Shown here: one piece after another, positions 1,861 to 42,203 of the stretch | Position numbering within the stretch: the stretch's first letter is position 1 | Layout: each line of letters opens with the position of its first letter | Assembly (NCBI GenBank): GCA_963838505.1 | Contig: CAWIRG010000013.1 | Span: 55,679 to 119,678, forward strand | Direction: 5' to 3' | DNA: 64,000 nucleotides | DNA from: Candidatus Bathyarchaeota archaeon | GTDB taxonomy: Archaea > Thermoproteota > Bathyarchaeia > Bathyarchaeales > Bathycorpusculaceae | Translations under genes and position numbers: made by a program | Notes under the pieces: generated by a model | The model's database searches: none | What the model saw: the letters and a program-made list of their open reading frames with translations, nothing else | What the model was told of the DNA's origin: nothing

Positions 1861-2592
1861 ATGGGAACAAGTAAAGAAGAAAACGCTGACAAAGTCAATT
1901 ATGAATGTGAAATCAAAGTAACCAAGAATGGCCCATACCTTGTTTCTGGCAAACTTCCCATATCCGAACAAATCATCATCGTCAACAACGAAGGGGTTCC
2001 GGTTGAATGGCGTTCAGGCAAGAAATATCCTTTGCAGGAAAAATGCGGCCTTTGCCGATGTGGAGAATCAAAGAAAAAACCTTTCTGTGATGGAGCGCAC
2101 ATGAAAACCGGTTTTGATGGCACTGAAATGGCCAGCCCTGAACCCTACTTGAGACAGGCAAAAATCATACAGGGCCCAACGCTTAAGCTAACCGACTTTG
2201 TGGATCTTTGTGCCTCTGCGCGTTTCTGTCATAGAGCAGGCGAAATCTGGAACCTTATTCCAAAATCAGATGACTTGGACGCCAAACGTGCGGCAATCGA
2301 AGATGCAGGAAACTGCCCGTCAGGTCGTCTTGTGGTTTGGGACAAGAAAACAGGGGAGGCAATTGAACCGAAATTGGAAAAATCAATCGGGTTAATCGAA
2401 GACCCTCAGATGGAGTGCAGTGGCCCGATTTGGGTGCGAGGAGGCATCCCGATTAGATCTGCAGACGGAAAAACCTATGAAGTTCGCAATCGCGTTACTC
2501 TCTGTCGCTGCGGCAAGTCCTCCATCAAACCATTTTGCGACAGCAGTCACTTCCCTGAGCATCGCTACGAAGAAATGATGTCTCACAAGTAA
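1861..2592 (+). CDS. CDGSH iron-sulfur domain protein (two CDGSH motifs)
   Basis: Two motifs, CRCGESKKKPFCDGAH and CRCGKSSIKPFCDSSH, match the CDGSH 2Fe-2S finger pattern C-x-C-x2-S-x3-P-x-C-D-G/S-x-H. ATG at 1861 lies inside ORF 1852..2592. Confidence 0.8.
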   Translation: MGTSKEENADKVNYECEIKVTKNGPYLVSGKLPISEQIIIVNNEGVPVEWRSGKKYPLQEKCGLCRCGESKKKPFCDGAHMKTGFDGTEMASPEPYLRQAKIIQGPTLKLTDFVDLCASARFCHRAGEIWNLIPKSDDLDAKRAAIEDAGNCPSGRLVVWDKKTGEAIEPKLEKSIGLIEDPQMECSGPIWVRGGIPIRSADGKTYEVRNRVTLCRCGKSSIKPFCDSSHFPEHRYEEMMSHK

Positions 2593-2734
2593 AAACAACG
2601 TAACCCTATATCTAGCGCGCTGGTTTATCCCTAAATCAGCGAGTGCACGCGCTGTTTGCCTTCATACTAAATGAAGTGACAAAGAAACAACAAACATCAG
2701 CGCCCGCAGCGGCGTAGCAGGCTGTTGGACCAAG

Positions 2735-2919
2735 CCATTCTATCTTTGCGCCACGCGCAACCACATGTAATGCCTGGGTTTGTTACAATTCACATTACTT
2801 TTGACGTTACAAACAAAAAGGCTGAGTCCACTCTGAACAGTAGCCCAGACTGTTTTTGTTCATGGTTTGTTACAACCCACATTACTTCTGACGTTACAAG
2901 TAAAAAAGGGGGGGTCGAC
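2735..2919 (+). repeat. composite intergenic repeat element, copy A (two 37-nt repeats 2778-2814 and 2865-2901, 50-nt spacer, G7 run + GTCGAC)
   Basis: Read directly. R1 is GTTTGTTACAATTCACATTACTTTTGACGTTACAAAC; R2 is GTTTGTTACAACCCACATTACTTCTGACGTTACAAGT. The whole ~185 bp recurs reverse-complemented at 31078-31259. Confidence 0.9.
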
Positions 2920-2990
2920 TTTCAAGAGCAGGTAGGGCGGGCGTGAAATCTCTGCCGAGGAAATTCAGAGTTTCCCGCGGCATGAAAAAT

Positions 2991-3329
2991 CTACGGGTTT
3001 CGTGTGAGTTCTGCTAGCTGTTTTTTGGTTAACCCAACCCCATGCTCGGCATCAAGTCTCTTGTGCACCTTTCCTTTTCTGAAAAGAATCACGGTAGGGT
3101 AGTACTCTATCGCGTATTTCTCACATAAATCTGGCCTTTCATCAACTATGACGCTCATGCACCTTTGCGGATTGTCTCTCGCATACTCTTCAAATGCCGG
3201 CAGAAACCTTTGAGAAAATGGACACCAAGTAGCATAAAAAAGAACGAAAGCCTCATCCTTCTCTTCCATTTCTCCCACTGGACTACTGCTTTCGGAGACT
3301 CCCACCTTACGCCTTTCAGCTTTGCTCAA
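2991..3329 (-). CDS. thioredoxin-fold protein with monothiol WCPFS active-site motif
   Basis: 112 aa. FYATWCPFSQRF sits at the position of the thioredoxin WCGPC motif, and YPTVILF is typical of the cis-Pro loop region. Confidence 0.75.
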   Translation of the reverse strand: MSKAERRKVGVSESSSPVGEMEEKDEAFVLFYATWCPFSQRFLPAFEEYARDNPQRCMSVIVDERPDLCEKYAIEYYPTVILFRKGKVHKRLDAEHGVGLTKKQLAELTRNP

Positions 3330-3600
3330 TCACATGTCTCCCCTCGGCGATAACACGCCTTAACTTGTACGCCCAACCACCATTATAGAGTTTTCCATGT
3401 TTCAAGATACTCACAGAACATTGCTGCGCGCTCTGAGACGAAACTCTCTATTTTTTTCTCGCGTTCGTCTCACGCCGATTTTCCCCACTTTTTCGTGCGC
3501 TACGTCGCAAGAAATTACGTGACTCGTGGAACCATAACTATTCCAGTCACTTCACGATATTCACATTACATTTAGAAAATAGGTTGCGCACGCATAGAAA

Positions 3601-3900
3601 TCAAAAAGGAAGCGGCACAGGCATGCCGTTTCTTGCTTCCTCAACTATCGGGAGCGCTTGTCTGAGTTCTCTGAAATACTTGAGCACGGTTATGCCTCTC
3701 GGAGTTATGGCGAACACTATTCTGCTTCTTCCAACGGCCCTTTCCTCAATAAGATTTTGCTTAATCAGAAAGTCCAAGTATTCTTTCAGAACTTTGCAAT
3801 TGACATTCGCTTTATACATTATATGCGTCAGTTTTAATGGTCCACGCTGGGATAACACTTGGAGAATGTTTACATACATCTCGAGTTTGGAACGTCTCAT
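3601..3900 (-). CDS. small winged-helix DNA-binding protein (HTH_45-like)
   Basis: Internal ATG at 3900 gives 99 aa. MYVNILQVLSQRGPLKLTHIMYKANVNCKVLKEYLDFLIKQNLIEE matches the pattern of small archaeal wHTH proteins. The upstream part of ORF 3601..4032 looks non-coding. Confidence 0.65.
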   Translation of the reverse strand: MRRSKLEMYVNILQVLSQRGPLKLTHIMYKANVNCKVLKEYLDFLIKQNLIEERAVGRSRIVFAITPRGITVLKYFRELRQALPIVEEARNGMPVPLPF

Positions 3901-4189
3901 AGTTCTACCCTTCACGCATTTGCCTTCAACAGTTGGAACAAGGAGTATAAACCGTTTATGAATTAGAAACCATGGTTCAAACCCACATATTGCCACGCCA
4001 ACACAAGTCTCCGTCGCATCTTTGCAACACATTTCTGTTCATATCGAACCCCTAGACAACCTGAACTTGGGATAGTTATTACAAATATGTATTCCAAAAC
4101 CGTATCTTAACAGCACATGCCAGTAAATGCCCACGACACAGAAACTCTTCTCAGGAATAAGCAACAGACGAACAGTACTACCCGCTCAG

Positions 4190-4350
4190 CGCGCTCTCTC
4201 TCCATGGTTTGTTACCACACAACATTACCACGGTTGTTACCAACAAGCAGGCGGGACGACTCCAAAGAAGGAGATTTCACTTGATTTCTCCATGGTTTGT
4301 TACAGCACAACATTACCACGGTTGTTACCAGCCAAAGATAGGGGGTCGAC
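4190..4350 (+). repeat. composite intergenic repeat element, copy B (two 38-nt repeats 4207-4244 and 4295-4332, 50-nt spacer, G5 run + GTCGAC)
   Basis: Read directly. R1 is GTTTGTTACCACACAACATTACCACGGTTGTTACCAAC; R2 is GTTTGTTACAGCACAACATTACCACGGTTGTTACCAGC. Same architecture as copies A and C but a different sequence. Confidence 0.85.
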
Positions 4351-4443
4351 TCTGAAAAGTAACATGTCTATCCTGAACCAAGCGCTTCAACGCACGTTTA
4401 TAAGCTGGGCAGAAGCTCACATTATTGTCTAGGGTAAGAGTCG

Positions 4444-5109
4444 ATGCAAGCCAAAAAGACTCTTTTGTGGGCAATTCTAATTGTGATCGTCATAGCTGTC
4501 GGTTTCGTAGGTATTCAAATCTGGACGGCTTTCAACTCTCCAACAATCACAACAAAATACACGGAAATCAGAGAATACAACGGAACAAAACTAGATTCGA
4601 TAAATGACTTCAGAATAGAGGCAATAGCAGGCGTACAGCACATAAACACAAGCAGCTATAGCCTCGTCGTCGATGGACTCGTTCAGAACCAAACCACCTA
4701 CACGTACGATAACATCATCGAAAACCACACAAGCTACCAGGAAGTTGTCACGCTCCACTGCGTAGAAGGATGGCAGGTCACAGCTCTATGGCAAGGTGTG
4801 CGAGTGAAAGATCTACTTGCAGAATCCGGATACGACCAGAATGCCCAAGTCGTGATATTCTATGCTCAAGACGGTTACACGACAAGCCTGCCGCTCTCCG
4901 ACATAGTGAACAACAACATACTGATAGCCTACAAAGTCAACAACGTAACCCTCCCGCCTGAAGAAGGCTACCCCTTCCAACTAGTAGCTGAAGGCAAACT
5001 AGGCTACAAATGGATAAAATGGATAACACAGATATCAGTATCCAACGACACAAGCTTCCGAGGCTATTGGGAAAGCAACGGATACAGCAACGACGCCAAC
5101 TATCCTTGA
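4444..5109 (+). CDS. membrane-anchored molybdopterin-oxidoreductase domain protein (MsrP/YedY-like)
   Basis: N-terminal TM helix (LLWAILIVIVIAVGFVGI). VVTLHCVEGWQVTALWQGVRVKDLL resembles the Mo-ligand Cys region of the sulfite-oxidase/YedY family. GYKWIKW lies near the C-terminus. Confidence 0.75.
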   Translation: MQAKKTLLWAILIVIVIAVGFVGIQIWTAFNSPTITTKYTEIREYNGTKLDSINDFRIEAIAGVQHINTSSYSLVVDGLVQNQTTYTYDNIIENHTSYQEVVTLHCVEGWQVTALWQGVRVKDLLAESGYDQNAQVVIFYAQDGYTTSLPLSDIVNNNILIAYKVNNVTLPPEEGYPFQLVAEGKLGYKWIKWITQISVSNDTSFRGYWESNGYSNDANYP

Positions 5110-5342
5110 TCCGGATCCCCAATAAAGATTTCACGTCGACCACCATCATACGCCACATTTGAAAGAAACATAGGTCAATCACTGACGGGTGATCACAACG
5201 CACAAAGCAGCAAAGGTTCCCTCAGCCCATAAGCGCGCTTGCCTTGTTTTCATCATAACACTATCAAGAACCCCACGGGTATGGATGATTGAAAAGTTTT
5301 TATCGGCTACAAAACGATAGTTGTTGCAAAGGCAATCTAACG

Positions 5343-5696: not shown

Positions 5697-6009
5697 AAAT
5701 TATCTAAATGAACCTGCAGCTTGCAGCCACAAACGCGCGAAAACCTGTTTGTAAAAAGAAAACGCGCGCGAAGGCCGTTCAGATTAAGAAGCAGACGCAC
5801 GCATGCGCTGAAGGTCTTGAACCCCTTGCCTATCAGTCACAAGTTCACCAAGCTTTTTCTCAAGCTGAATGCGGCGTATCTTAGAGTTTCAAGCAGTTGG
5901 AAAAAAATGTTGCCGCGACAAAACGCAACACAAATTCTCTCGTTTGTCGTCTTTTCCCTCCCGAAACGCACTTATCTGTTTGCGTCGCTCATACAAGCAA
6001 GGCAGAATC

Positions 6010-6933
6010 ATGATGACGGAGATAATAGAATGCGTACCTAACTTCAGCACTTCAGATCCCGAGACAGTGCAAGCTATCCTCAATGAACTCAAAGAAACCA
6101 AGAAGACATTCCTACTGGACTATTCTTTCGATGACTACTACAACAGGCTCGTTGTCTCTTTCATAGGTAACAAGAAATCCGTCTTGGAAGCAGCGTCAAA
6201 AATGGCTTCCAAGGCTGTAGAACTGATTGACATGAGAAAACACAAAGGGCAACACCCCCGCATCGGAGCTGTTGATGTTGTCCCCTTCATACCGCTAAAG
6301 GACGCCACATTAGATGATTGCATAAAACTCTCCATGAAATTCGGCCAATATCTAGCCGAAAGATGCCGTGTCCCCGTTTACCTGTACGGTGCTGCCTCAA
6401 AAAAACCTGAACGAAAAGATCTAGACTGGATACGGGAAGGTGACTACGAAAAACTGCCTGAAATGATTGTCAAGCCTGAACGCAAGCCCGACTATGGAAC
6501 GCCAAAGCCTCATCCCACGGCAGGCGCCACCATAACAGGCACACGCAAAATCATGGCCGGTTTCAATGTTAACATAGGAACAGCAGACTTGAAAACCGCA
6601 AAGAAAATCGCGAAGGCCCTACACGCAAGCAAAGGCGGCTTTTCCAACGTCAAAGCAATGGCTGCCTACTTGCCCGAGAAAAACATTGCACAGATCGGCA
6701 TGAGCATAAGCGACTTCGAAAAAACTCCACTTTACCGCGTTTATGAAACACTAAAGATCGAGTGCGAACGTTACAACATCCCAATAATCAGTTCTGAATT
6801 CTGCGGCATGGCTCCGCTAAAGGCCCTAATCGACACGGTGCGATACTACCTCAAAGTTGAAAATCTGCCTGAGGAACGCATCTTGGAAATAGCCGTACGA
6901 GATGCCATTGAAAAAGGCGGTGCTTTTGAGTAA
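6010..6933 (+). CDS. ftcD: glutamate formimidoyltransferase (FT domain only)
   Basis: MMTEIIECVPNFS at the N-terminus and HPRIGAVDVVPFIP are hallmarks of the formiminotransferase domain. 307 aa from the ATG at 6010. Confidence 0.85.
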   Translation: MMTEIIECVPNFSTSDPETVQAILNELKETKKTFLLDYSFDDYYNRLVVSFIGNKKSVLEAASKMASKAVELIDMRKHKGQHPRIGAVDVVPFIPLKDATLDDCIKLSMKFGQYLAERCRVPVYLYGAASKKPERKDLDWIREGDYEKLPEMIVKPERKPDYGTPKPHPTAGATITGTRKIMAGFNVNIGTADLKTAKKIAKALHASKGGFSNVKAMAAYLPEKNIAQIGMSISDFEKTPLYRVYETLKIECERYNIPIISSEFCGMAPLKALIDTVRYYLKVENLPEERILEIAVRDAIEKGGAFE

Positions 6934-8251
6934 AGCTGCCAAAGCAAAGGCAAGAGAAAAACTAGACTTGCTCATCGTCAACGCAAATGAACTCATCACG
7001 CTTTCCGACGACACCCAAAAACCACGCAGAGGAAAGCAGATGCAGGAGATTGGAATAGTACGGGACGGCTGCTTAGCGATCAAGGATGGAAAAATCCTTG
7101 CTGCTGGAAAAACCGCTGAAGTCACAAAGGCTTTCAAAGCTGAAAACGTGATAAGCGCAAACGGCAAGATTGTTCTACCCGGTTTTGTCGACCCCCATAC
7201 ACATCTGGTTTTCGCCGGCTCACGAGAGGACGAGTTTCAAATGCGCGTCGCAGGCACTCCCTACATGGAAATCCTCAAAGCTGGCGGAGGCATATTGAGG
7301 ACAGTCCGAGAAACGAGAAAGGCTAGCTTCGAAAAACTCGTCGAAAATGGCACGAAGACGTTGGATTCAATGCTGGAACACGGAACCACGACGGTTGAAG
7401 CAAAAAGCGGCTATGGCCTGACCACAAAAGACGAGCTGAAGATATTGCAGGTCATTCAACGCCTAAACCAACTGCACACAATCGACATTGTCCCAACCTT
7501 TCTAGGCGCACATGCTATCCCGCCAGAATTCTCTAACAGCCCACGAGACTACGTCAACTTGGTCATCGAAGAAATGATCCCAAAAGTGACCGAGAAGGGA
7601 CTCGCAGAGTTCTGCGACGTGTTCTGCGAAAGAGGAATATTCAACCTTGAACAGTCAAGACGCATCTTAACAGCAGGAAAGAACTCAGGCCTGAAACCCA
7701 AGGTTCACGCAGACGAGATGAGCTGCCTAGGCGGAGCAGAACTCGCAGCCAGCATAGAAGCAGCATCTGCAGATCACATGCTTTTCTCTTCCGAAGAAGG
7801 CATCAAAGCCATGGCTGACAAAAATGTCATAGCTAACCTACTTCCCGCAGCAGCATTCAGCCTCATGAATAACCGATATGCAGACGCTCGAGCGATGATA
7901 AATCTCGGCGCCTCAATAGCTCTTGGAACCGACTTCAACCCAAACTGCTGGGCTGAAAACCAGCAGCTAATAATTGCGCTTGCTTGTCACTTCATGAGGA
8001 TGACACCAGCTGAAGCAATAACTGCAACGACCATCAATGCCGCCTACGCCGTAGGCAGAGGAAAAGAAGTGGGCAGCCTAGAACCTGGAAAGAAGGCTGA
8101 TGCTGTCATATTGGACGTGCCCAATCACAAGTTTCTTGGCTACCGATTTGGTGTGAACCTCGTTGACAAAGTGATAAAGAACGGAAGAGTCGTGATCGAC
8201 ACAGAAGCAAGTCGAAACGAGTATCGGATTCTAGAAGAGCAGAAGATGTAG
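6902..8251 (+). CDS. hutI: imidazolonepropionase
   Basis: PGFVDPHTHLVFAG, KSGYGL, HADE and GTDFNP amidohydrolase motifs typical of HutI. The exact start is uncertain; the ORF overlaps the ftcD end by 32 nt. Confidence 0.9.
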   Translation: MPLKKAVLLSKAAKAKAREKLDLLIVNANELITLSDDTQKPRRGKQMQEIGIVRDGCLAIKDGKILAAGKTAEVTKAFKAENVISANGKIVLPGFVDPHTHLVFAGSREDEFQMRVAGTPYMEILKAGGGILRTVRETRKASFEKLVENGTKTLDSMLEHGTTTVEAKSGYGLTTKDELKILQVIQRLNQLHTIDIVPTFLGAHAIPPEFSNSPRDYVNLVIEEMIPKVTEKGLAEFCDVFCERGIFNLEQSRRILTAGKNSGLKPKVHADEMSCLGGAELAASIEAASADHMLFSSEEGIKAMADKNVIANLLPAAAFSLMNNRYADARAMINLGASIALGTDFNPNCWAENQQLIIALACHFMRMTPAEAITATTINAAYAVGRGKEVGSLEPGKKADAVILDVPNHKFLGYRFGVNLVDKVIKNGRVVIDTEASRNEYRILEEQKM

Positions 8252-8331
8252 GAAATAGACTTGCCGTGTCCTGAACATTTGATGGTATTTGGGCAAAGAA
8301 TTAAAGTGTGTTTTCTCATTCTTGATTCAGG

Positions 8332-10002
8332 GTGGAAAAACTATTGGTTGAGCTGGAAAAGCCTGTTCACTTGCTGAGAGGGAAAAAACTGCATTGCAAG
8401 AACTGGCAAATTGAGGGCATTCTGCGGATGCTCTGTAACGTTGTCGACCCGGAAGTAGCGAAGGACCCTGAAAAGCTCATCGTATATGGAGGAACTGGAA
8501 AGGCCTGTCGGAATTGGGAATGTTTTGACCAAATTGTTGAAACATTGATAGAGTTAGAGCCTGACGAAACAATGCTCATTCAAAGTGGAAAACCCGTGGT
8601 CGTTTTCACGACTCACACGTGGGCCCCAAGAGCATTGATCGTTAATTCAATGCTCGTGCCAAAATGGGCAACGTGGGACTACTTCTACGAGTTGGAACAG
8701 AAGGGACTGATAATGTATGGACAGATGACAGCAGGATCGTGGGCATACATAGGAACGCAGGGCATTCTTCAGGGAACGTACGAGACAATGGCTGCTGTTG
8801 CGAAGGAGCACTTCGGCGGCAGCCTTCGCGGAAGGCTCGTTCTCACCGCGGGTCTCGGCGAAATGGGAGGCGCACAGCCTCTGGCTGTAACCATGAACGA
8901 CGGTGTAGCTTTAGTCGTGGAAGTTGATAAACGAGCGATTGAGCGCAGGATCAAACACAATTACTTAGAAACATGGACTGACAGCCTGGAAGAAGCTTTG
9001 AGGCTAGCTCTGGACGCTAAGCAAAGGCAAGTTCCAAGAAGTATCGGTCTGCTTGGCAACGCCGCTGATGTTTACCCGGAACTTCTAAAGAGAGGCATAA
9101 TCCCTGACGTTCTGACTGACCAGACCAGCGCACATGACCCCCTGAATGGCTATTACCCTGCAGGCATCAGCAAAGAAGAAGCGGACGACCTTAGAGAGAG
9201 CGATCCAAAAGAATACTGCAGACGTGCCAACGAGAGCATGCGCTTGCAGGTTGAAACGATGGTCAAGATGATGCACAAGGGAGCTGAAACGTTTGATTAC
9301 GGAAACAACCTTAGAGAACAGGCCAGCAAGGCTGGCTTCAAAGAGGCCTTCGCTTACCCAGGCTTTGTCCAGCGATACGTTAGACCAATGTTCTGTGAAG
9401 GAAAGGGGCCGTTTCGCTGGGCATCCCTCGTAGGCACCGAGGACGATATTCACGAGTTGGACAGGGTCATAATGAGGGATTTTGCGTATAACAAAGAGCT
9501 GTGTCGATGGATTACCAAAGCGAGAGAACATGTCAAGTTCCAAGGCCTACCCGCAAGGGTTTGCTGGCTCGGTTTCGGCGAACGGGCAAGATTTGGAAAA
9601 ACCATCAACAGCATGGTCGCCAATGGCAGTCTCTCCGGGCCAATTTGGATCGGCAGAGACCATCTAGACGGAGGAAGCGTCGCTTCTCCCTACCGGGAGA
9701 CGGAAGGCATGAAAGATGGGAGTGACGCAATTGCTGATTGGCCTGTACTAAACGCTCTAATAAACGCCGTCGGAGGAGCCACATGGGTTAGCGTGCATCA
9801 CGGTGGAGGAGTCGGAATTGGGTACAGCATACACGCGGGAATGTGCTTGGTGGCCGATGGAACCAAAGAAATGGAACGTCGAATAGAAACGGTCTTAACG
9901 ACAGATCCTGGAATGGCAGTAGTAAGACACGCAGACGCTGGCTACAAGAAGGCCCAGCAAATTGCAAAAGATGAACACATCAAAATGCCAATGCTAAGAT
10001 AA
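8332..10002 (+). CDS. hutU: urocanate hydratase
   Basis: 556 aa, GTG start. [15 protein letters not shown]-site motif and full-length urocanase-like sequence ([20 protein letters not shown]). Confidence 0.95.
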
Positions 10003-11831: not shown

Positions 11832-12335
11832 TTACAAACCATGCAACCTGTCCGCAAGCATCTCGGTCTCTTTTGCAACAATGATTCTTGCCTTTTCAAA
11901 TTTCTCCTTGAGTTTAGAAAAGGGTCTGGTTGCGTCAACTCCAACTTTCGTCGTCATTCCTGTTTCCTGATCCGCGGAAGAATCCAACGTTGATCCTCGC
12001 ACGTTGTTCACGACTATCATATCCTTGTTTGCCTGGAATCTTGTCGCGACAGCCCATTCAACACTGGAAGGGTCAAACACGTCGATATCAGGATCCACGA
12101 CGACTGCGTGTTTCAGGCTGGGATGCGCTGCGAAAGCTGCCAACAAAACGTTTTTTCCATCGCCGTCAAGCTGTTTCTCCACAGAAATCACCGCGTGTAG
12201 CCATCCGCACCCTCCAATTGAGAGGTTGACCGCGTGGACTTTGGGAACAACTTTTGAAGCTGCTTCCCAGATGAGGACTTCATGGGGAACTCCCATCAAA
12301 AACCTGTGTTCAGGATCCAGAAGGCAACAGTCCAT
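11832..12335 (-). CDS. UbiD-family decarboxylase, C-terminal fragment (gene split by a shift to the +1 frame)
   Basis: PEHRFLMGVPHEV... continues the UbiD fold begun in ORF 12310..13173. The two ORFs overlap at 12310-12335 in frames offset by +1. Confidence 0.8.
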   Translation of the reverse strand: MDCCLLDPEHRFLMGVPHEVLIWEAASKVVPKVHAVNLSIGGCGWLHAVISVEKQLDGDGKNVLLAAFAAHPSLKHAVVVDPDIDVFDPSSVEWAVATRFQANKDMIVVNNVRGSTLDSSADQETGMTTKVGVDATRPFSKLKEKFEKARIIVAKETEMLADRLHGL

Positions 12336-13173
12336 GATAGATGTAGTCTTCTCGTTGCAAGATGCCTACGATTGTAACGACCGGCTGTTTTCTTTGCACA
12401 TCGTATGTGCCTGTGATATCCACGAAGGGGCCTTCAATGACCTCTTCCGTCGCTGAAATCTTTCCTTCCAAAACGATTTCGCTGTCAGCAGGGGCATAGG
12501 CATCGACGTTTTCACATTTGACCAAATGCAGGTTGCCCCCTATCAAGGTGTTCGCAACGTGAAACTCGCACACGCCGAAGGGAACCGGAGACGATGCAGC
12601 AACTAGAACCGCGGGGTGCACACCGATGGAGATAGCAATGTCAAGATCTTGGCCTGCTTCCTTCCCCTTTCGCCACAGTCTGAAAAGATGTCTAGGAACT
12701 AGACGGATAGCGAGATGGCTCTTGTCCAGAACTTGAAGACGATGTATCGAGACGTTTTCGATTTCTCCAACAACGCTCTTCGCATGAACGACAGCCGAGG
12801 TTATGTATGGAGCCGCATCCTTTTCGAAGTGCGTTAGAATTGGAAACCTCGACAAGTCAACTATCTTGATTCTCTTCAAGACCTCGTTTTCAACAACCCT
12901 CGGCTTGCTGGGCGTATGCCAAGCTTCGACTAGTTTTTCGCAGAGTCTGTTTTGGTCAACGCCGAGAGCTTTGCAAATCCTTTTTCGCGATCCGCAAACA
13001 TTGGTGACGACCTTTTTGTCACTGCCTTTCACGTTTTCAAACAATAGAATCGAACCTTCGTTGTCAAAGCTTCTTGAGACGTAGGAGATTTCAAAACGAG
13101 GTGAGACCTCTTCTTTGACACGAACTAAGTCTCCATCCTTCTCTGATGTCTTCAAGAAGTCTCTGAAGCTCAT
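12310..13173 (-). CDS. UbiD-family decarboxylase, N-terminal fragment (candidate anhydromevalonate-phosphate decarboxylase)
   Basis: MSFRDFLKTSEKDGDLVRVKEEVSPRFEI...LLFENVKGS...VVTNVCGSRKR is a typical UbiD N-terminus. The ORF ends at a TGA immediately after ...LLPSGS. Confidence 0.85.
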   Translation of the reverse strand: MSFRDFLKTSEKDGDLVRVKEEVSPRFEISYVSRSFDNEGSILLFENVKGSDKKVVTNVCGSRKRICKALGVDQNRLCEKLVEAWHTPSKPRVVENEVLKRIKIVDLSRFPILTHFEKDAAPYITSAVVHAKSVVGEIENVSIHRLQVLDKSHLAIRLVPRHLFRLWRKGKEAGQDLDIAISIGVHPAVLVAASSPVPFGVCEFHVANTLIGGNLHLVKCENVDAYAPADSEIVLEGKISATEEVIEGPFVDITGTYDVQRKQPVVTIVGILQREDYIYHGLLPSGS

Positions 13174-22175: not shown

Positions 22176-24443
22176 GTGAAGCTGTCCAGAGAAGCCTTGG
22201 TTAATGGCCTAAAGAGCCTGGGAAAACTGCGGGTAAAAGTCAGCAGCGGTTCACTGCTAACCTTCGCGGCAATTTCGCTCATAGTGCTTGTGGCTTTTAC
22301 TATCAGGATTCTTCCACTGCGCTGGGAAATAGGGACGGGAACTCAACCTTCAGTAAACCTGTCCGAGTTTGACGCATTTTTCGAGTATCGTGTAAGTAAC
22401 TACATGGTGAGTAACGGATTGTTCTCGCCATTCTGGCCAAAGCTTTGGGTGGACTTTCAACTTTGGCATCCGCAGGGGATCAACATGGGTTCAGAATCAC
22501 TGCCATCAATACCTATGACTGGAGCTTTTCTTTATGACTTGATCCATCTGTTGGGCGTGAACATTGATTTAATGAGTTTTGTTTCACTTCTTCCGCCGAT
22601 ATTCGGCACATTATGCGTTTTGATAATGTATTTCCTTGGGAAGGAATTTGGAGGGAAAACCGTTGGAATGCTTGCTGCACTCATACTAGCGCTGGACTCA
22701 TCTTTCATTACAAGAAGCAATCTGGGCTGGTTTGAAACTGAAATGTCTACTTTTGCTTTCCTGCTTTTCCTCTTGCTTTTTCCAAGGGCAATCGAAGAAG
22801 AGAGACCCATTGGATCCTCGATAAGATATTCGCTCGCGTGCGCTGCATGCTTGGCCTACTTCATAATGGGGTGGGGTGCAGCATATTACCTAGTTGACTT
22901 AGCAGCGCTTTTTGTTTTTGCTCTGCTGGTACTGAGAAGATACTCACGGCGAATTTTCTTTGCGTACGGCATATCATTCGGTCTTGGACTGCTAATAGCG
23001 ATGAGCGCCCCCTTCCTAGGGATAAAATACCCGATAAGCTATGCAGTGCTGCCTATTGCAGGCGTATTCGTTTTGCTTTGCCTGGGTGAAGTCCTGCAGA
23101 ATCTTGCTTCTGCAAGAGAGAGATTCCTGCTCGCAGTAACAACCATAGTCGTTATAATCGGCGCCTTCGCCGCGATTTTCGCGCTAGGATACGCAGGCAA
23201 CATAGCAGGCAAGTTTTTTACGGTCATAGACCCCCTCGTGCGAAGTGCCAATCCGCTCACGATATCCGTTGCTGAACACAACGTAACTGCTTGGGGTTCC
23301 ATGTATTATGATCTCGGCATCTTGACAATATTCTTCATTGTCGGACTGTATTTCATCGCAAGAAACATCACAAACAAGAACTTGTTATTGTTGCTCTTCG
23401 GTCTAACATCTCTATATTTCTCTGCCTCCATGGTGCGCCTACTTTTCCTTCTTGCACCGGCCTTCGCCCTCATTTCCGCCATTGGAATAGTAGGCATACT
23501 AAAACCGTTTGTAACAATGCTAAAAGAACCGCCAAAAATAACGACGAAAAAGTTTCGCTTAGAACATGTCGGAAAAGAGTTCAGCGGAACCGCCGTCCTC
23601 CTGATATTCGTGGTTCTGACGACGCAATTTGCCATTTCGCCACAAACAGGCGGTGTTCCCACAGTGTACAGGCAGGCTTATACTCCTTTGACCATTACTG
23701 CATCCAGTCTTCCCATAGTTCCAAACGTGCCAGTCAACCAATGGCTAGACATGCTCCAATGGACCAGCACTAACCTCCAACCGACTGATGTTGTCGACTG
23801 TTGGTGGGACTACGGATTTTGGCTTACGATCAAGGGAAACGTCACGACGATTAATGACAACGCCACCATAAACAGCACGGCTATCCAAAATGTTGGTTTC
23901 ACTTTCGTCGCCAACGAGAGTGAATCGCTGAAAATGCTGAAGCTATACGACGCGAAATACGTACTTGTGTTCACCACAATATCTGTGCAAACGTCTTCAG
24001 GCACTACCTATGCTGTTGAGGCGGGCTATGGAGACGAGGGCAAATGGGTGTGGATGGCGAGAATCTCCGGTCAGAGCTCCAACGTGAACAGCCAACAGTG
24101 GCCTGCATGGAACTGGACTGATGAAACTCCATTTGGCTTTTATGATTCAAACGCTACGACCTCAACTTATTGGCCGAACAATTGGGCGTGGAGCGATTAC
24201 GGATACAACTGCACAATCTACAAGCTGATGAGTTGGACGAGAAATCTTTATTGTACCACGAATAACATCGTTGACCCAGATTCAGGCAACGTTACACAGC
24301 CGCTTTACTTTACGCCTGCATATATTGCTGGGTTGAACCTTGCCCCAAGCGACGCTCAGAGCAATTATGGCAACCTGGTCCCGCTCGTCGCCCTATACAA
24401 GATCGACTATACTAAATACAATATCGACTATCCTAACGGATGA
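22176..24443 (+). CDS. aglB: dolichyl-phosphooligosaccharide-protein glycotransferase (archaeal oligosaccharyltransferase, STT3 family)
   Basis: About 13 TM helices, then the WWDYGFW catalytic motif at CWWDYGFWLT. Confidence 0.95.
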   Translation: MKLSREALVNGLKSLGKLRVKVSSGSLLTFAAISLIVLVAFTIRILPLRWEIGTGTQPSVNLSEFDAFFEYRVSNYMVSNGLFSPFWPKLWVDFQLWHPQGINMGSESLPSIPMTGAFLYDLIHLLGVNIDLMSFVSLLPPIFGTLCVLIMYFLGKEFGGKTVGMLAALILALDSSFITRSNLGWFETEMSTFAFLLFLLLFPRAIEEERPIGSSIRYSLACAACLAYFIMGWGAAYYLVDLAALFVFALLVLRRYSRRIFFAYGISFGLGLLIAMSAPFLGIKYPISYAVLPIAGVFVLLCLGEVLQNLASARERFLLAVTTIVVIIGAFAAIFALGYAGNIAGKFFTVIDPLVRSANPLTISVAEHNVTAWGSMYYDLGILTIFFIVGLYFIARNITNKNLLLLLFGLTSLYFSASMVRLLFLLAPAFALISAIGIVGILKPFVTMLKEPPKITTKKFRLEHVGKEFSGTAVLLIFVVLTTQFAISPQTGGVPTVYRQAYTPLTITASSLPIVPNVPVNQWLDMLQWTSTNLQPTDVVDCWWDYGFWLTIKGNVTTINDNATINSTAIQNVGFTFVANESESLKMLKLYDAKYVLVFTTISVQTSSGTTYAVEAGYGDEGKWVWMARISGQSSNVNSQQWPAWNWTDETPFGFYDSNATTSTYWPNNWAWSDYGYNCTIYKLMSWTRNLYCTTNNIVDPDSGNVTQPLYFTPAYIAGLNLAPSDAQSNYGNLVPLVALYKIDYTKYNIDYPNG

Positions 24444-24853
24444 AGGGAGACGATTTGTTCCCCCGAGCTCCTGACCAGCATAAACCAAACAAACCTCTGG
24501 TTCCAAATGGTTTAGGCGCCATCTACGTTATGGTCAGCGTCGTGTACATTTTTCTTCTGTATTTCTTTAGTGAAAGAATCAGCCCTGCTGCAGGTGCTTC
24601 TGCCTCTCTAACATTGGCATCCTGCATTTTGTTCGGCGGTTTCATGGGTCTATTAGACGACTGGATAGACCTCAAATGGCGATACAAAGCTTTCCTCCCG
24701 CTGGTAGCAGCGATACCACTTGCCACTTTTGCAAGCTCTACTGCTGTACGTACTTCAATAGCTCTTCCCCTACTGGGAACCGTAAACTTCGGGATCCTAT
24801 TACTATTTCGCAATTATACCAATCCTCGTGACCATAATCACAAACGCAGTTAA
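24440..24853 (+). CDS. aglH: AglH/ALG7-like GlcNAc-1-phosphate transferase (Glycos_transf_4), N-terminal fragment
   Basis: LLDDWIDLKWRYK (DDxxD motif). The ATG overlaps the aglB stop (ATGA). The reading frame is lost near 24790. Confidence 0.75.
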   Translation: MKGDDLFPRAPDQHKPNKPLVPNGLGAIYVMVSVVYIFLLYFFSERISPAAGASASLTLASCILFGGFMGLLDDWIDLKWRYKAFLPLVAAIPLATFASSTAVRTSIALPLLGTVNFGILLLFRNYTNPRDHNHKRS

Positions 24854-25331
24854 CCAGCTTGGCGGCCTGAATGGTTTAGAAACAGTCTGTCCAGCGATAA
24901 TCATGATAGGCTTGATGTCAATCTCAGGATCCTATGCAATTCTCTTGGTATGTCCACTTATCGTTTGGCTAGTGCTTGCTTTCTTCAACTTGCGAGGCAA
25001 GATCTTCGTGGGTAATACTGGATCCTTTGCTATAGGAATAACACTCGCCTCTTTTGCAATTATTTCTGATTTGAAGCTTGATTTGGTAATATCAGTTTTG
25101 CCTTACATATTCAATTCCACATTGATTCTCTTGACAATCTTCTTCTTCAGAACTAAGGCCAATGTTTTCTTCGATGGTAAACAACTCAAGTCAGATCACA
25201 GAAGAAGTCTGATAACAATCATAACGTTTAATCGTCCACTTACTGAGAGGCAGGTTGTGATAGTGATTTCGCTTCTTGTCGCGTCCTCAACTGTTGCTGC
25301 CGTAATCGCGCGACAACTGGTAATGGTCTAG
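24828..25331 (+). CDS. aglH: AglH/ALG7-like GlcNAc-1-phosphate transferase, C-terminal fragment
   Basis: TNAVNQLGGLNGLE matches the eukaryote/archaeal GPT motif NAxNxxAGxNGLE. In this frame the sequence reads back to 24786 as ...SYYYFAIIPILV. Confidence 0.75.
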   Translation: MTIITNAVNQLGGLNGLETVCPAIIMIGLMSISGSYAILLVCPLIVWLVLAFFNLRGKIFVGNTGSFAIGITLASFAIISDLKLDLVISVLPYIFNSTLILLTIFFFRTKANVFFDGKQLKSDHRRSLITIITFNRPLTERQVVIVISLLVASSTVAAVIARQLVMV

Positions 25332-30671: not shown

Positions 30672-31077
30672 AGGAAGCTGTCACGTCCTGCCTCTGTTAA
30701 TCTTGACGCTCCGTTCTAAACCTTTCCATAACATATCTCGAAGTGGCAACTCCGTTGTAACGTCTTGGAGGCTCAGAACGTAGCGCCCATGCGTGTTCCT
30801 AAAATGGTCAAAAATGGCTATGATTCCGTTTTGCACATTTCTGCCAGTGCTCAAGACAGTTACTCGAAGAAATCAAGAACAGATACGAAACGCAAAACCT
30901 TCCTTGAATCAGGGAAGACGAATAAAAACCATTTTAGGCCAATTTCGGAATAGGCATGTGCACCGCTAATTCAAGTATGCTGAAACCCCTTTTGCATAAT
31001 AGCCCAGCAAAGTAGACCCGCCTTTTTTATTTTACATTTTTTGTAATGTTGAATTGTAAGATTTGATGTTGCGTTGG

Positions 31078-31259
31078 CGACCCCCCTTTTTCACTTGTAA
31101 CGTCAGAAGTAATGTGGGTTGTAACAAACCATGAACAAAAACAGTCCGGGCTACTGTTCAGAGTGGACTCAGCCTTTTTGTTTGTAACGTCAAAAGTAAT
31201 GTGAATTGTAACAAACCCAAGAATTACATGTGGTTGCCCGTGGCACAAAGACAGAATGG
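31078..31259 (-). repeat. composite intergenic repeat element, copy C (reverse complement of copy A; repeats at 31180-31216 and 31093-31129)
   Basis: The reverse complement matches 2735-2919. Both 37-nt repeats are identical to those of copy A, and I count about 8 differences, all outside the repeats. Confidence 0.9.
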
Positions 31260-31720
31260 TCAGGTCGGGCAGGCCTACCTTGGAGTTACCGTCTACGTTG
31301 CGCGCTAGCCTGTTTCTAGATTTCTTTTCTTGGGTCGAGTAGGGTTGAGTTGCGGATGTTTCTTCAAAAGGTTGTGTCATGAAGAAAGAAGGATAATTCT
31401 TTGCAAACGAATTTAGGGTCAGGCATGCGCGCGTTGTGGCGTGCCATGGATCTGCGGAGCGCATATGACTCTCTTTTATGCGCCCGTAGTGCCTACAAAT
31501 ATCTTTTATGGGTATCGGGGTTCTGTATGGTTGTCGGTTGATGTGAATCATTGCAAACTGTCGATTGCGTATGCGGCAAGGCTTAGGTACATAAGTGTCA
31601 CTTTGGAGATGAATTATCCTGATAAGCGTTGGAGACGGTGGTGCAGTAGTTCGAGGCTACTGAAGCCATATGTCGTCGAGCCAGCTACAGATTGAATGGG
31701 GGGGTTGGAGACCTGTGCTA

Positions 31721-36576: not shown

Positions 36577-37110
36577 CCTTCAAACTTCGTTGTCTTCCCG
36601 TTGCAACAGGTTAAAACCTCGCAACCAAGTATTTGTTTAGTCCCATCCGGCTTCTTCAGAAGGAACCGCTAGAATGCATAACGCGTGCTATTATGCCTTG
36701 AAGGACAAGGTTCCGGTTCACTGTCGTGGCCAAGAGAGCTTTTGGCGCGCTAGGCTGTTGCTAAATCGAATCGTTCGTGTCAATTTCCAAGTAGCGTTTG
36801 GGCATGATGGCGTTTTCTTGGCACTCTTACGTGCTAGGTCATGGTGTTTGTCCAAGCCTTAGAATGGCAGAGCAAGTTTATGTGAATCCCGCGAATTTAG
36901 CAACACGCTGGCGCGCATGTTAATCGGCATGGATTGGCAGGCGACGAACGTTGTACAAGAGATCTGAATGGAGACCAGTACGCGGTGTGCACTGCAGCGC
37001 AGTGCGGGTTCAAACCTTCTGGCAATAGCATAACACTCGTCATCAGCCGACAGTCTAATTGGGGGAGAATATTAAAGAATGGGCAGAGCATATCATAAAG
37101 GCAATTTGAC

Positions 37111-40325: not shown

Positions 40326-40423
40326 TTTCCAAATCAGTATTTATTAGGGTCTATGTTTAATAGATTTCGAATGCTCCAATGAATATGCAAGCTGCTTGAT
40401 CCTTGGAGAATGAGGAAAGACAT

Positions 40424-41272
40424 ATGCCAATCCGTCAACCAATCGTTTGCGTTCTCGGTCACGTTGACAGCGGCAAGACTTCTCTCTTGGACAAAATCCG
40501 CAAGACAAGTGTTCAAGCTAGGGAGTTTGGTGGTATCACGCAGCACATAGGTGCCAGCTTTTTTCCAGTTGAAACGCTTAGTCAGCTTGTTGGCTCCGCG
40601 CTTTCAAGAGTAAAGGCAGAAATAGAGATCCCTGGTTTACTTATCATCGACACGCCTGGGCATGAGGCTTTCACTAATCTTCGCAGAAGAGGCGGCAGCG
40701 TGGCGGACATCGCGATTCTTGTAATGAATGTTCTGCGAGGTTTTGAAGCCCAGACATATGAGTGTGTAGAGATTTTGAAGGCCAGAAAAACCCCCTTCCT
40801 AGTCGCGGCTAACATGATAGACCGCGTGCCAGGCTGGAATTCCTACACAGATACGCCGTTTTCGAAGGCGTACCAGCAGCAGGATCCATACGTTCGGGAG
40901 GGTCTGGACAACAAGATATACGATGTTATGGGCGCTTTCTCACGTCTAGGTTTCAAGACGGATCGGTTCGACCACATAAAAGACTTCAAATCAACGATTG
41001 CAATTGTGCCCACCAGCGCAAAGACAGGGGAAGGCATCACTGAACTGATAACGGTTCTCATAGGATTGACGCAGCAGCATTTGAAGACGCGTCTGCAAAC
41101 GACGGAAGGTCCGGCCAAGGGTACAGTACTTGAGGTCAAAGAAGAACCTGGACTTGGCCTGACGCTCAACACCCTAATATATGATGGAACCCTGCAGAAA
41201 AGACGATGTAGTTGTAGTCGGAGGCAAGGATCAACCAATCGTGACACGTATCAGGGCGATTCTTGTTCCTAA
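40424..41272 (+). CDS. infB: translation initiation factor aIF5B (IF2-type GTPase), N-terminal fragment
   Basis: G1 GHVDSGKTSLLD, G3 DTPGHEAF and the G4-like ANMIDR. The frame is lost at the A-run near 41198-41201. Confidence 0.9.
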   Translation: MPIRQPIVCVLGHVDSGKTSLLDKIRKTSVQAREFGGITQHIGASFFPVETLSQLVGSALSRVKAEIEIPGLLIIDTPGHEAFTNLRRRGGSVADIAILVMNVLRGFEAQTYECVEILKARKTPFLVAANMIDRVPGWNSYTDTPFSKAYQQQDPYVREGLDNKIYDVMGAFSRLGFKTDRFDHIKDFKSTIAIVPTSAKTGEGITELITVLIGLTQQHLKTRLQTTEGPAKGTVLEVKEEPGLGLTLNTLIYDGTLQKRRCSCSRRQGSTNRDTYQGDSCS

Positions 41273-42203
41273 ACCCTTGGACGAAATAAGAGACCCAAGG
41301 GACAAGTTCTCTTCAGTCAATTCCGCTTCAGCCGCTGCGGGCATCAAGATCGTTGCCCCCAATTTAGAAGGGGTGCTGGCAGGAGCACCAATTTACGTCG
41401 TCCCTCCGGATCAAAAACCTGAAAAGTACGTGAAGCTCATTGTCGATGAAATCAAGAAGATAAGAATTGCCACTGATGTCGACGGTATCGTGTTGAAAAC
41501 CGATACGCTGGGCTCGCTTGAAGCCATTGCGGAAATATTGAAACAGAACAACATTCCCATTAGGCTGGCTGATGTAGGAGACATTTCAAAACGTGATGTC
41601 GTCGAGGCGTCAGTCGTGAAGGAACATGAGCCCTTGTACGGCGCGGTGTTGGCCTTCAACGTCAGAATATTGCCTGATGCCGAAAAAGAAGCGGGAGACA
41701 GAGGAGTTCAAGTCTTCCGTGAGAAAATAATCTATCATGTCATAGAGAATTATCTAGCTTGGTTCAAAGGGAAGCGAGAAGCTGAGCTTGATCAGGATTT
41801 TGGGACTCTTGTCAAACCAGCCAAACTTCGGGTGATGGAAGGATACGTCTTTCGGAGGGCGAGGCCGGCGATTTTCGGTGTTGAAATCCTGTCAGGTAGC
41901 GTTAAACCCAAGATCGCGCTGGTTAGGCAGAATGGTGAAGAAGTAGGTGAGATCCAGCAGGTTCAGGACAAAGGAGAGTCGTTGCCAACTGCTGAGAAGG
42001 GGATGCAGGTGGCGATTTCCATGGATAAACCGGTGTTTGGAAGACACATATTCGAAAAAGACGTGTTGTACGTGAAGGTTCCCGAGAAGCAAGTGAAAAC
42101 TCTGATGACAAAGTTCGCTGAAAGATTGACAGAAGAAGAACAACAAGCGTTGAACGAGTATGTGGAAGTAATGAGGAAGAAAGTGCCGTTTTGGGGAGCA
42201 TAG
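41181..42203 (+). CDS. infB: translation initiation factor aIF5B, C-terminal fragment
   Basis: KDDVVVVGGKDQPIVTRIRAIL... continues aIF5B domains II-IV in the +1 frame. The two fragments together give about 590 aa, the normal aIF5B size. Confidence 0.9.
   Translation: MMEPCRKDDVVVVGGKDQPIVTRIRAILVPKPLDEIRDPRDKFSSVNSASAAAGIKIVAPNLEGVLAGAPIYVVPPDQKPEKYVKLIVDEIKKIRIATDVDGIVLKTDTLGSLEAIAEILKQNNIPIRLADVGDISKRDVVEASVVKEHEPLYGAVLAFNVRILPDAEKEAGDRGVQVFREKIIYHVIENYLAWFKGKREAELDQDFGTLVKPAKLRVMEGYVFRRARPAIFGVEILSGSVKPKIALVRQNGEEVGEIQQVQDKGESLPTAEKGMQVAISMDKPVFGRHIFEKDVLYVKVPEKQVKTLMTKFAERLTEEEQQALNEYVEVMRKKVPFWGA

Follow-up and report, generated by a model that had tools for sequence, protein, structure and literature searches.

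What is a pair of 38-nt direct repeats, set 50 nt apart, doing between two divergent genes of an archaeal chromosome? The question is raised by element B, a repeat-gap-repeat block which, together with its tail, occupies positions 4207-4356 of the 64,000-nt stretch of contig CAWIRG010000013.1 (Candidatus Bathyarchaeota archaeon, assembly GCA_963838505.1) that was analysed here and is called the window. A first-pass annotation, made from the sequence of the window, had grouped B with two similar elements, A and C, and had suggested that it is a functional array bound by the product of the adjacent winged helix-turn-helix (wHTH) gene. The comparisons reported below give good support to a different answer, namely that B represents type B of a family of mosaic elements that are non-coding, intergenic and specific to Bathyarchaeia. 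As for what the family does, we tentatively favour, from sequence comparison, the view that it provides double-stranded DNA modules on which an oligomeric protein, encoded at some other place, would dock.

Base-by-base reading and a unit profile place box 1 of B at 4207-4244 and box 2 at 4295-4332, both 38 nt long and on the plus strand, with a 50-nt spacer at 4245-4294, exactly as had been proposed. Box 1, which is of the B type, is made of three sub-repeats (TTGTTACCA / ACATTACCA / TTGTTACCA) at steps of 13 and then 12 nt. The spacer, kept in length and poorly kept in sequence, carries at its 3' end the GAGATTTCAC..GATTTCTCCATG that is common to other B-type copies, and CATG stands directly 5' of both boxes (4203-4206 and 4291-4294). 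Box 2 is followed by the tail at 4333-4356, in which 8 nt (CAAAGATA) lead into GGGGG (4341-4345) fused to GTCGAC (4345-4350) and then TCTGAA (4351-4356); the whole follow-on reads GGGGGTCGACTCTGAA and fits a module-end motif of the family, which consists of an A-rich stretch, a G-run, YCRAC and TYTSAR. A direct-repeat search on B returned two 44-nt copies (4199-4242 and 4287-4330) that are 95% identical, with a period of 88.

An exact-pattern scan of 185,579 species genomes returned a contig of a Bathyarchaeia metagenome-assembled genome (L001) which is syntenic with the window, the proteins of the two being 81% (arginase), 75% (RsmB) and 81% (PolB) identical. Upstream of arginase this contig has adjacent B-type and A-type elements, and a second A-type element lies between RsmB and PolB, so that three loci fall in 8 kb of it; the 64-kb window also has three. 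Metagenomes were scanned with a pattern of ACATTAC-N7-RTTAC occurring twice with 55-85 nt allowed between, which makes periods of 74-104 acceptable, and gave 120+ loci. About 20 of these are true relatives (L005, L008, L012, L013, L016, L018, L032, L033, L036, L044, L053, L056, L063, L085, L090, L107, L117 and L120), and for several the source is the same series of peat and bog samples as for L001; the rest are unrelated coding or satellite repeats. Orthologous loci that were fetched held extra copies (L205 and L210), and a copy lies between two Amt genes. In all, about 25 related elements of two main types, A and B, came out of these searches, with single genomes carrying both. No relative was found in IMG/VR viral contigs with the metagenome pattern, and no element in three other 20-kb Bathyarchaeia stretches (L207, L208 and L209). 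The copies occur only in intergenic DNA, where they adjoin unrelated genes in either orientation. As a literature search for a described Bathyarchaeia repeat or small RNA gave nothing relevant, the family is apparently undescribed so far.

By the unit profile every element has exactly two boxes, and each box consists of three 12-13-nt sub-repeats ending in TTAC(A/C)A (9-mer WYRTTAC(A/C)W), which vary in concert within a type. The A-type box reads TTGTTACAA-tcc-ACATTACtt-ctg-ACATTACAA and the B-type box TTGTTACCA-caca-ACATTACCA-cgg-TTGTTACCA, while a third variant, seen in L032 and L056, has AACGGAC as its second linker. The sub-repeat step is visible as an AA/TT autocorrelation maximum at 12 nt (z = 9.8), and there is no signal at 10-11 nt. 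Box cores of 22-25 nt are near-invariant across genomes, linkers included; the B-type core CAACATTACCACGGTTGTTACC, for instance, is identical in nine of the ten B-type boxes from 5 loci. Box identity amounts to 80-81% within type A, 89-93% within type B and 62-67% between them. Spacers, on the other hand, are only 63-69% identical within a type, and A-type against B-type they are 41% identical, which is close to unrelated sequence.

Spacer length nevertheless stays at 49-51 nt, within 1 nt of 50 (counted over fixed alignment columns, each of the 21 sequences has 47-49 nt). In 23 elements the period is 86 (5), 87 (11), 88 (4) or 89 (3), with the value for L107 corrected for a regular-expression artefact, although the scan would have permitted anything from 74 to 104; the L205 copy has a period of ~85-86 by profile coordinates. 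Between the window and L001 the element is 85-90% conserved, whereas the surrounding intergenic DNA is barely alignable. From this contrast in identity, together with the spacer length, the period and the comparison of flanks, we therefore conclude that both the geometry and the box sequence are under selection. The earlier proposal that geometry is kept while sequence diverges is borne out in this way, since spacers of types A and B that agree at 41% still agree in length within 1 nt; and as against the prospect of no further members or of freely varying spacing, there are some 25 related elements, and in 23 elements the period stays within 86-89. The reading of an exact 50-nt gap as a functional sign has to be softened, however. 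The sequence after box 1 (A-rich, G-rich, TC-NAC-TCTGAA ... CAT) is homologous to that after box 2 (A-run, G-run, YCRAC, TYTSAR), so the pair goes back to a historical tandem duplication of a ~87-nt unit, and the length, while constrained, partly reflects that duplication.

The two other elements of the window belong to type A. Element A, on the plus strand, has a leader at 2712-2777, box 1 at 2778-2814 (37 nt; TTGTTACAA / ACATTACTT / ACGTTACAA in 12-nt steps), a 50-nt spacer at 2815-2864 containing GAGTCCACTCTGAA, AACAGT-n7-ACTGTT, T5 and CATG, box 2 at 2865-2901 (37 nt) and a tail at 2902-2925 (A6, G7, TCGAC, TTTCAA). Element C, on the minus strand, extends from 31216 to 31093, with box 1 at 31216-31180, a 50-nt spacer at 31179-31130 and box 2 at 31129-31093. 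Its tail GAAAAAGGGGGGTCGCC and a third module, of another type (T2; AACGCAACATCAAATCTTACAATTCAACATTACAAAAAATGTAAAAT, A-run, GGCGGGTC, TACTTTG), follow at 31092-31008, the module itself lying at 31075-31008; neither A nor B has such a module. A and C are 98% identical over boxes and spacer and ~70% identical over their leaders, and this leader of ~65 nt also stands 5' of the L001 copy between RsmB and PolB. Hence the claim of one architecture for all three elements stands for the 50-nt gap and fails for the repeat, which is 37 nt in A and C. Period is 87 in A and 88 in B, the extra base of B being inside the box, and in each of the three elements the final TTAC of box 1 is 58 nt away from the first GTTAC of box 2. 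CATG precedes both boxes in B and the second box only in A and C, as had been noted, and A and B do share the cores GGTTTGTTAC, ACATTAC, GTTAC and the G-run. The G-run fused to GTCGAC, described as following the second box, is present in B, whereas C ends in GTCGCC.

B can be taken as a diverged relative of A and C and not as a chance look-alike. The A-type core pattern matches the window four times against 0.04 expected, MACATTAC matches it 10 times against 2.5 expected, with seven of the ten inside A, B or C, and with the unit profile the six units of the window obtain E-values between 1e-12 and 3e-17; these pattern counts and E-values exclude chance. A box-like isolated fragment, ATTCACATTACATTT, and a nearby GAAATTACGTGAC (3555-3575 and 3505-3530) lie in the spacer between the thioredoxin and wHTH genes and may represent a decayed module.

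Beyond the box pair, the family has further module types, T2 (CAACATnGCAATTTTACAATTCAACATTACAAAAAATGTAAAAT) and T3 (CAACATCGCGATCTTGTAATCCAACATGATGTTAGACC), which end in the same A-run/G-run motif and have the skeleton CAACAT..ATyTTGTwAC..AAyyCAACAT in common. They stand before or after the box pair in an order and number that vary by locus, and in the window only C has one. Three further module variants occur in L210 (9700-9900 and 10977-11243), upstream of an HD-domain gene; each of these divergent modules ends in a G-run plus CCAACTTTGAG, no canonical box pair accompanies them, and one has a CACACA/TGTGTG stem around CAACATTAC.

Is B, then, an operator? It lies in the 543-nt divergent region between the wHTH gene (HTH_45 domain, 3601-3900, minus strand) and a molybdopterin oxidoreductase/MsrP-like gene (4444-5109, plus strand), and direct-repeat arrays are typical transcription-factor targets; an array bound by the adjacent wHTH protein and controlling both divergent promoters was the natural first proposal. 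We now regard it as very improbable. A tblastn search with the window wHTH protein finds no relative in any other fetched locus, and A and C have no wHTH neighbour; the named binding partner finds no support here. The proposed place of B in a wHTH/MsrP-like control region fares no better. In MsrP-like orthologues (86%, 81% and 73% identity) the upstream region measures only ~140-165 nt, the neighbours differ and no called HTH_45 gene is among them, and a profile search finds no element beside the gene; the 86% orthologue, in L205, keeps the same transcription factor B recognition element (BRE) and TATA region. In the window both genes have a canonical BRE/TATA near the start of the gene and outside B, namely AAACGG-TTTATAC at ~3950 on the minus strand for the wHTH gene and GCACG-TTTATAAG at 4391-4403 for the MsrP-like gene.

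The wider distribution leads to the same result. Copies of the family are found in ~13 independent contexts beside unrelated housekeeping genes, which include aIF1A, EF2, FEN1, seryl-tRNA synthetase (SerRS), UDP-glucose dehydrogenase, HD-domain, Amt, PolB and arginase genes (only some of these names were checked by search, the rest being read from translations). The B-type copies in L001 (L001b), L008, L013 and L036 adjoin aIF1A, EF2, an HD-domain protein and a large repeat protein respectively, of which the HD protein was checked by search and the other three were named by eye from translations. Orientation relative to the neighbours is random and about half of the copies lie between convergent genes. 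The element is not a private control site for neighbouring genes. An unrelated HTH_45 gene does lie just downstream of the HD gene in L210, and tblastn with the window wHTH misses it.

A coding role can be considered next. A minus-strand open reading frame (ORF) of 18 codons fills the spacer from the ATG in CCATG to the TAA in GTAAC (4245-4297, minus strand, in B; 2815-2867, minus strand, in A; 31127-31179, plus strand, in C), and an 18-residue peptide encoded there would explain the fixed length and the CATG. The frame is intact in seven of the eight A-type copies tested at period 87-88 and in the period-88 B-type copies, A, B and C all being among the intact ones. A peptide is highly improbable all the same. 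Variable sites are spread over the three codon positions as 8, 11 and 10, and of the codon differences 36 are synonymous and 223 non-synonymous. L008 has TAG as its second codon, one L001 copy (L001a) begins with ACG, and in copies of period 86 and 89 the frame continues for 29 to >66 codons. The regularity of this ORF arises incidentally from the fixed gap and the conserved CAT and TTAC motifs. On the plus strand, the period of 86-89 rules out a coding repeat. A type I toxin-antitoxin or small-peptide repeat of the Sib/Ibs kind was likewise rejected, as there is no codon-position signature and the start or the frame is lost in several copies. Mechanically called ORFs of 73-174 aa run across the elements (4127-4432 and 2725-2946 on the plus strand, 31027-31551 on the minus strand, and L001 2804-3325) and match each other by BLASTP between genomes only because the DNA repeat is conserved; they are spurious and likely to be mis-annotated as hypothetical proteins, and annotators should be warned of the three in the window.

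Repeats of 37-38 nt that start with GTTTG and flank a spacer whose length is held within 1 nt while its sequence diverges also recall a unit of clustered regularly interspaced short palindromic repeats (CRISPR), and the element could be a degenerate or orphan mini-array or a CRISPR-derived regulatory RNA. We consider this extremely doubtful. There are never more than two boxes of a kind, and no multi-unit array with this repeat was present among the scan matches. The spacers are inherited and homologous between genomes (63-69%), not unique, and A and C share one. No Cas domain was detected among ~60 ORFs scanned across the 64-kb window. Unlike CRISPR arrays, moreover, the elements have an A-run/G-run tail and other module types.

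More weight attaches to the possibility, itself rather unlikely, that the arrays are transcribed and the boxes act as unstructured plus-strand RNA, rich in A, C and U and poor in G. Such an RNA might be a multivalent platform or sponge for a protein that reads the repeated xUUAC motifs, or might provide antisense or guide segments, with different targets for types A and B. Stretches of 22-25 nt that are invariant up to and including the linkers would suit such a role, as would the mild depletion of G on the plus strand (15% outside G-runs, against 24% in the window). In box 2 the arms GTTTGT/ACAAAC vary among G-C, G-U and A-U combinations that are valid pairs only on the plus strand, small compensatory changes occur in the stems of the T3 and L210 modules, and the mean length of the best Watson-Crick stem of each module is 5.7 bp, compared with 4.5 bp in shuffles; this small stem excess and the few compensatory changes point to RNA, although they are suggestive only. 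The many copies between convergent genes occupy a frequent place of independent small RNA genes.

The structure and promoter tests are less favourable to a transcript. RNAalifold on 21 aligned sequences gave no consensus pair on either strand, and a split by type or strand only weak and inconsistent ones. Fold z-scores lie between about +1.9 and -3.4 with a mean near zero; spacer folds average -0.3 (plus) and -0.7 (minus), and module folds are weak. As a single sequence A folds no better than shuffles, and B reaches z = -2.5 on the plus strand with hairpins that are not conserved. The spacer hairpins to which the first-pass annotation drew attention (GGAGA-n12-TCTCC in B and AACAGT-n7-ACTGTT in A and C) are indeed present, but neither is conserved or more stable than shuffled sequence, that of B not being significant. 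Rfam has no match in the window and nothing relevant at E<=10 over 2550-4500 or at E<=1 in seven other array loci. No canonical TATA box is found upstream of or inside any array, in contrast to the flanking genes, where such boxes are clear. For several copies, located in divergent regions, read-through is no possible source of transcription, and a 1-nt spacer tolerance has no obvious reason in a flexible RNA.

Known RNA classes were compared and set aside. Box C/D small RNAs (sRNAs) have a C box (RUGAUGA), a D box (CUGA) at their ends, a K-turn and guides of 10-12 nt; A-type boxes and spacers contain CUGA but no C or C' box, B-type boxes lack CUGA, and the best Rfam C/D match reaches 20 bits against a gathering threshold of 44. 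An H/ACA sRNA is rejected as there is no structure. The A-type spacer resembles an intrinsic terminator (hairpin and T-run), but its stability equals that of shuffles and B-type spacers have no T-run; in A-type copies, though not in B-type ones, the spacer T-run could pair at long range with the A-run/G-run that follows box 2. G-U-rich stems on the minus strand arise from the direct GUAAUGUUG repeats and shift register between copies. Complementarity of the B box to the 530 loop of 16S rRNA (14 of 15 pairs by eye, G-U included) was dropped, as about one such match is expected by chance on a rough estimate and the fit is weaker still against the archaeal version of the loop. The L036 contig, which has a B-type array, also shows a tRNA-like match at 1611-1688 on the minus strand; it falls in the tmRNA clan with 33 bits, under the gathering threshold, and probably represents an ordinary tRNA gene.

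The absence of a conserved fold and of a promoter is among our reasons to prefer double-stranded DNA as the functional form. Read in this way, the box pair would be a two-armed docking site with three sub-sites per arm for an oligomeric, sequence-specific protein, and the fixed distance of 87-89 bp, which also comes close to three histone dimers, would let both arms be bound together. The A-type (TTACAA) and B-type (TTACCA) boxes would represent two specificities, both kept per genome, and instead of serving one neighbouring gene the sites might label places on the chromosome for its organisation or segregation, for recombination or for a global regulator. Two features of the architecture favour docking on DNA. 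We infer that a 1-nt tolerance over ~88 bp reflects a stiff duplex bridged by an oligomeric protein, since a duplex shorter than the persistence length would impose such a tolerance and an unstructured RNA would not; and tandem DNA-binding domains or subunits would be well matched by the three direct sub-sites of each arm. The random orientation and the frequency of copies between convergent genes were also counted for a role as DNA.

Several points weigh against docking. Neither the 12-13-bp step nor the 87-89-bp arm distance (~8.3-8.5 turns) amounts to whole helical turns, and there is no 10-11-bp A/T phasing; helical phasing of A/T tracts in the spacer had been considered by itself and was rejected on the same 12-nt period. 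Invariant linkers fit base-pairing or whole-strand recognition better than they fit typical, degenerate protein sites. The paired variation of the box-2 arms and the small compensatory stem changes in two module types hint at an RNA or single-strand role, which the G-poor plus strand would also suit, and the constancy of spacing could be partly inherited from the tandem duplication of an 87-nt unit. It is these non-integral turns, invariant linkers, G depletion and G-U-compatible variation that keep the RNA explanation alive, and with it that of a selfish repeat.

A selfish or neutral mosaic repeat, comparable to bacterial interspersed mosaic elements (BIMEs), neisserial intergenic mosaic elements (NIMEs), BOX elements or miniature inverted-repeat transposable elements (MITEs), could have spread by duplication, recombination or an unseen transposase without any host function, in which case box conservation would reflect recent spread and gene conversion. 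Turnover of copies is apparent. Between RsmB and PolB, L001 has ~420 extra nt with an element where the window has a 170-nt spacer and none, and the flanks of this L001 copy match those of window copy C and not its own locus. Upstream of the HD-domain gene, five related loci have an A-type element (L033, L117 and L120), a B-type element (L013) or the divergent modules (L210), whereas the same site is empty in L211 (HD protein 88% identical to the L033 query) and in L212 (82%). The contrast between core (98%) and leader (~70%) in A and C suggests gene conversion or partial duplication. Taken together, the L001 insertion with its C-like flanks, the core-leader contrast and the switch of type at an orthologous site argue for duplication and gene conversion among copies, and the conclusion that copies are gained, lost, duplicated and homogenised between loci is well supported.

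Such turnover, the varying order and number of modules and the location of copies in 'safe' convergent spacers would all be expected of a selfish repeat, and we still find the explanation unlikely. At the single filled/empty pair available, RsmB-PolB, which is too small a sample by itself, the boundaries are blurred and neither terminal inverted repeats nor a target-site duplication were seen; the window has no transposase or integrase; and copy density is low, as the three 20-kb stretches without an element illustrate. The spacer length is constrained, and near-invariant boxes in copies whose spacers have diverged to 63-69% speak for selection and not for recency. A and C had also been considered as the ends of one transposon, being inverted and 28 kb apart, but the DNA between them is housekeeping and syntenic with L001.

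Among described elements, BIME/REP (repetitive extragenic palindromic) sequences of E. coli, NIMEs of Neisseria (dRS3 repeats flanking RS segments) and BOX elements of pneumococci are bacterial intergenic mosaic elements. Like them, the Bathyarchaeia elements are strictly intergenic, consist of a few short modules in variable number and order, occur in several copies per genome, often between convergent genes, and are homogenised by recombination; the two box types, R(A) and R(B), and the modules T2 and T3 occur in differing orders, with all copies intergenic and several loci per genome. Short conserved repeats that flank longer variable segments in NIMEs particularly resemble the box-spacer-box arrangement. 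Unlike the palindromic hairpin units of REP and BOX, however, the boxes consist of 12-nt sub-repeats in direct orientation and form no stable structure; the family moreover resides in an archaeal class, apparently at low copy number. We know of no counterpart in BIMEs, NIMEs or BOX elements to the fixed distance of 49-51 nt between near-invariant boxes.

Two-armed docking sites are known from parC of plasmid R1 (two sets of five 11-bp iterons), parS of P1 (box A and box B arms around a bend) and plasmid iterons. As in parC and parS, short direct sub-repeats are arranged here in two arms at a fixed distance, with the DNA between them kept in length more than in sequence. The differences are that the Bathyarchaeia copies have no adjacent partition or replication gene, are dispersed on the chromosome and have a 12-13-bp step, and that docking is predicted; thus the repeat architecture of an iteron- or centromere-like site is present, with no par, rep or orc gene nearby. 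A replication origin was rejected as well. Archaeal origins have inverted origin recognition boxes (ORBs) with a G-string around an AT-rich unwinding element, beside orc1/cdc6, whereas the boxes described here are direct repeats, no Orc1/Cdc6 gene lies in the window and three copies occur within 30 kb. A viral origin was set aside as IMG/VR has no members, and SurR-type sites (GTTn3AAC) as, by reading of the sequences, the motif occurs in only some boxes.

Dispersed non-coding tandem repeats, or 'satellites', have been described in prokaryotes (Subirana and Messeguer 2019, PMC6749651). Among 142 archaeal reference genomes that survey met with only a single such family, in Methanocella conradii, whose unit of 37 nt is repeated perfectly. 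The elements reported here share with these satellites non-coding tandem units of >30 nt, a period that is not a multiple of 3 and several loci, but unlike the M. conradii satellite their units are of ~87 nt, diverged, mosaic and conserved across genomes. We rate bacterial intergenic mosaic elements together with the rare prokaryotic dispersed satellites as the closest descriptive class, and the family as a lineage-specific mosaic repeat.

A more novel account, which we hold to be quite improbable, would make box-spacer-box the gene or the DNA site of a new, CRISPR-independent system of Bathyarchaeia that is repeat-guided or repeat-measured. Two 37-38-nt handles 50 nt apart (+/-1) would then be read by a dedicated, ruler-like protein machine, with A- and B-type handles for two paralogous machines; a new class of guide or scaffold RNA and an archaeal chromosome-marking (centromere-like or domain-boundary) system would be examples.

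Whichever role applies, the element corresponds to no catalogued RNA family or repeat class, and its near-invariant box cores stand against orthologous proteins that are only 75-81% identical between the window and L001. If docking, the reading we prefer, is right, the element points to a chromosome-organising or recombination factor that is not yet known, and if an RNA is involved, to a new class of unstructured regulatory or guide RNA. Few uncultivated archaea are as abundant in sediments and peat as Bathyarchaeia, and to our knowledge almost nothing is known of their non-coding genome; the unit profile is a ready probe for genomes and metatranscriptomes.

A further intergenic feature accompanies the family. 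A GC-rich, palindrome-like motif, CTAGCGCGC(TAG) / AGCGCGCT, is intergenic at every window site checked (2611-2622, 4186-4195, 5230-5240, 31298-31308, 3424-3433, 36745-36751 and 216-222) and also occurs in L005, L008, L018, L036, L085, L107 and L205, lying 15-290 nt upstream, sometimes downstream, of most family members. Its total count of 10 is not above shuffles (6.3), although its placement is striking, and it could be a separate protein site or a promoter-associated element.

With respect to the neighbours of the other two window elements, A sits between convergent CDGSH/Fer4_19 and thioredoxin genes, and C 340 nt upstream of the arginase-family gene. The gene content of the window is that of an archaeal chromosome, with PolB, AglB/STT3, CGI-121, topoisomerase VI, thermosome, an RLI-type ABC ATPase, ribosomal proteins, RNA polymerase subunit D, SMC-ScpAB and histidine-utilisation genes, and the close homologues of its proteins carry the label Candidatus Bathyarchaeia. 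The domain scan of its ~60 ORFs detected no cas, transposase, integrase, par, rep or orc1/cdc6 gene, no tRNA was found in the window, and an exact-sequence look-up of the window MsrP-like protein returned no record. Three genes appear to be split over two overlapping ORFs each: a UbiD gene on the minus strand (11832-13173; N-terminal and core part 12310-13173, C-terminal part 11832-12335), a gene for an IF-2/aIF5B-type factor on the plus strand (GTPase 40403-41272, IF-2 and domain 4 41181-42203) and a Glycos_transf_4 gene on the plus strand (24440-24853 and 24828-25331). The splits could be genuine or could result from frameshifts or assembly errors. The histidine-utilisation cluster at 5869-10002 (formiminotransferase, an imidazolonepropionase-like amidohydrolase and urocanase) adjoins the redox genes and fits protein or amino-acid degradation.

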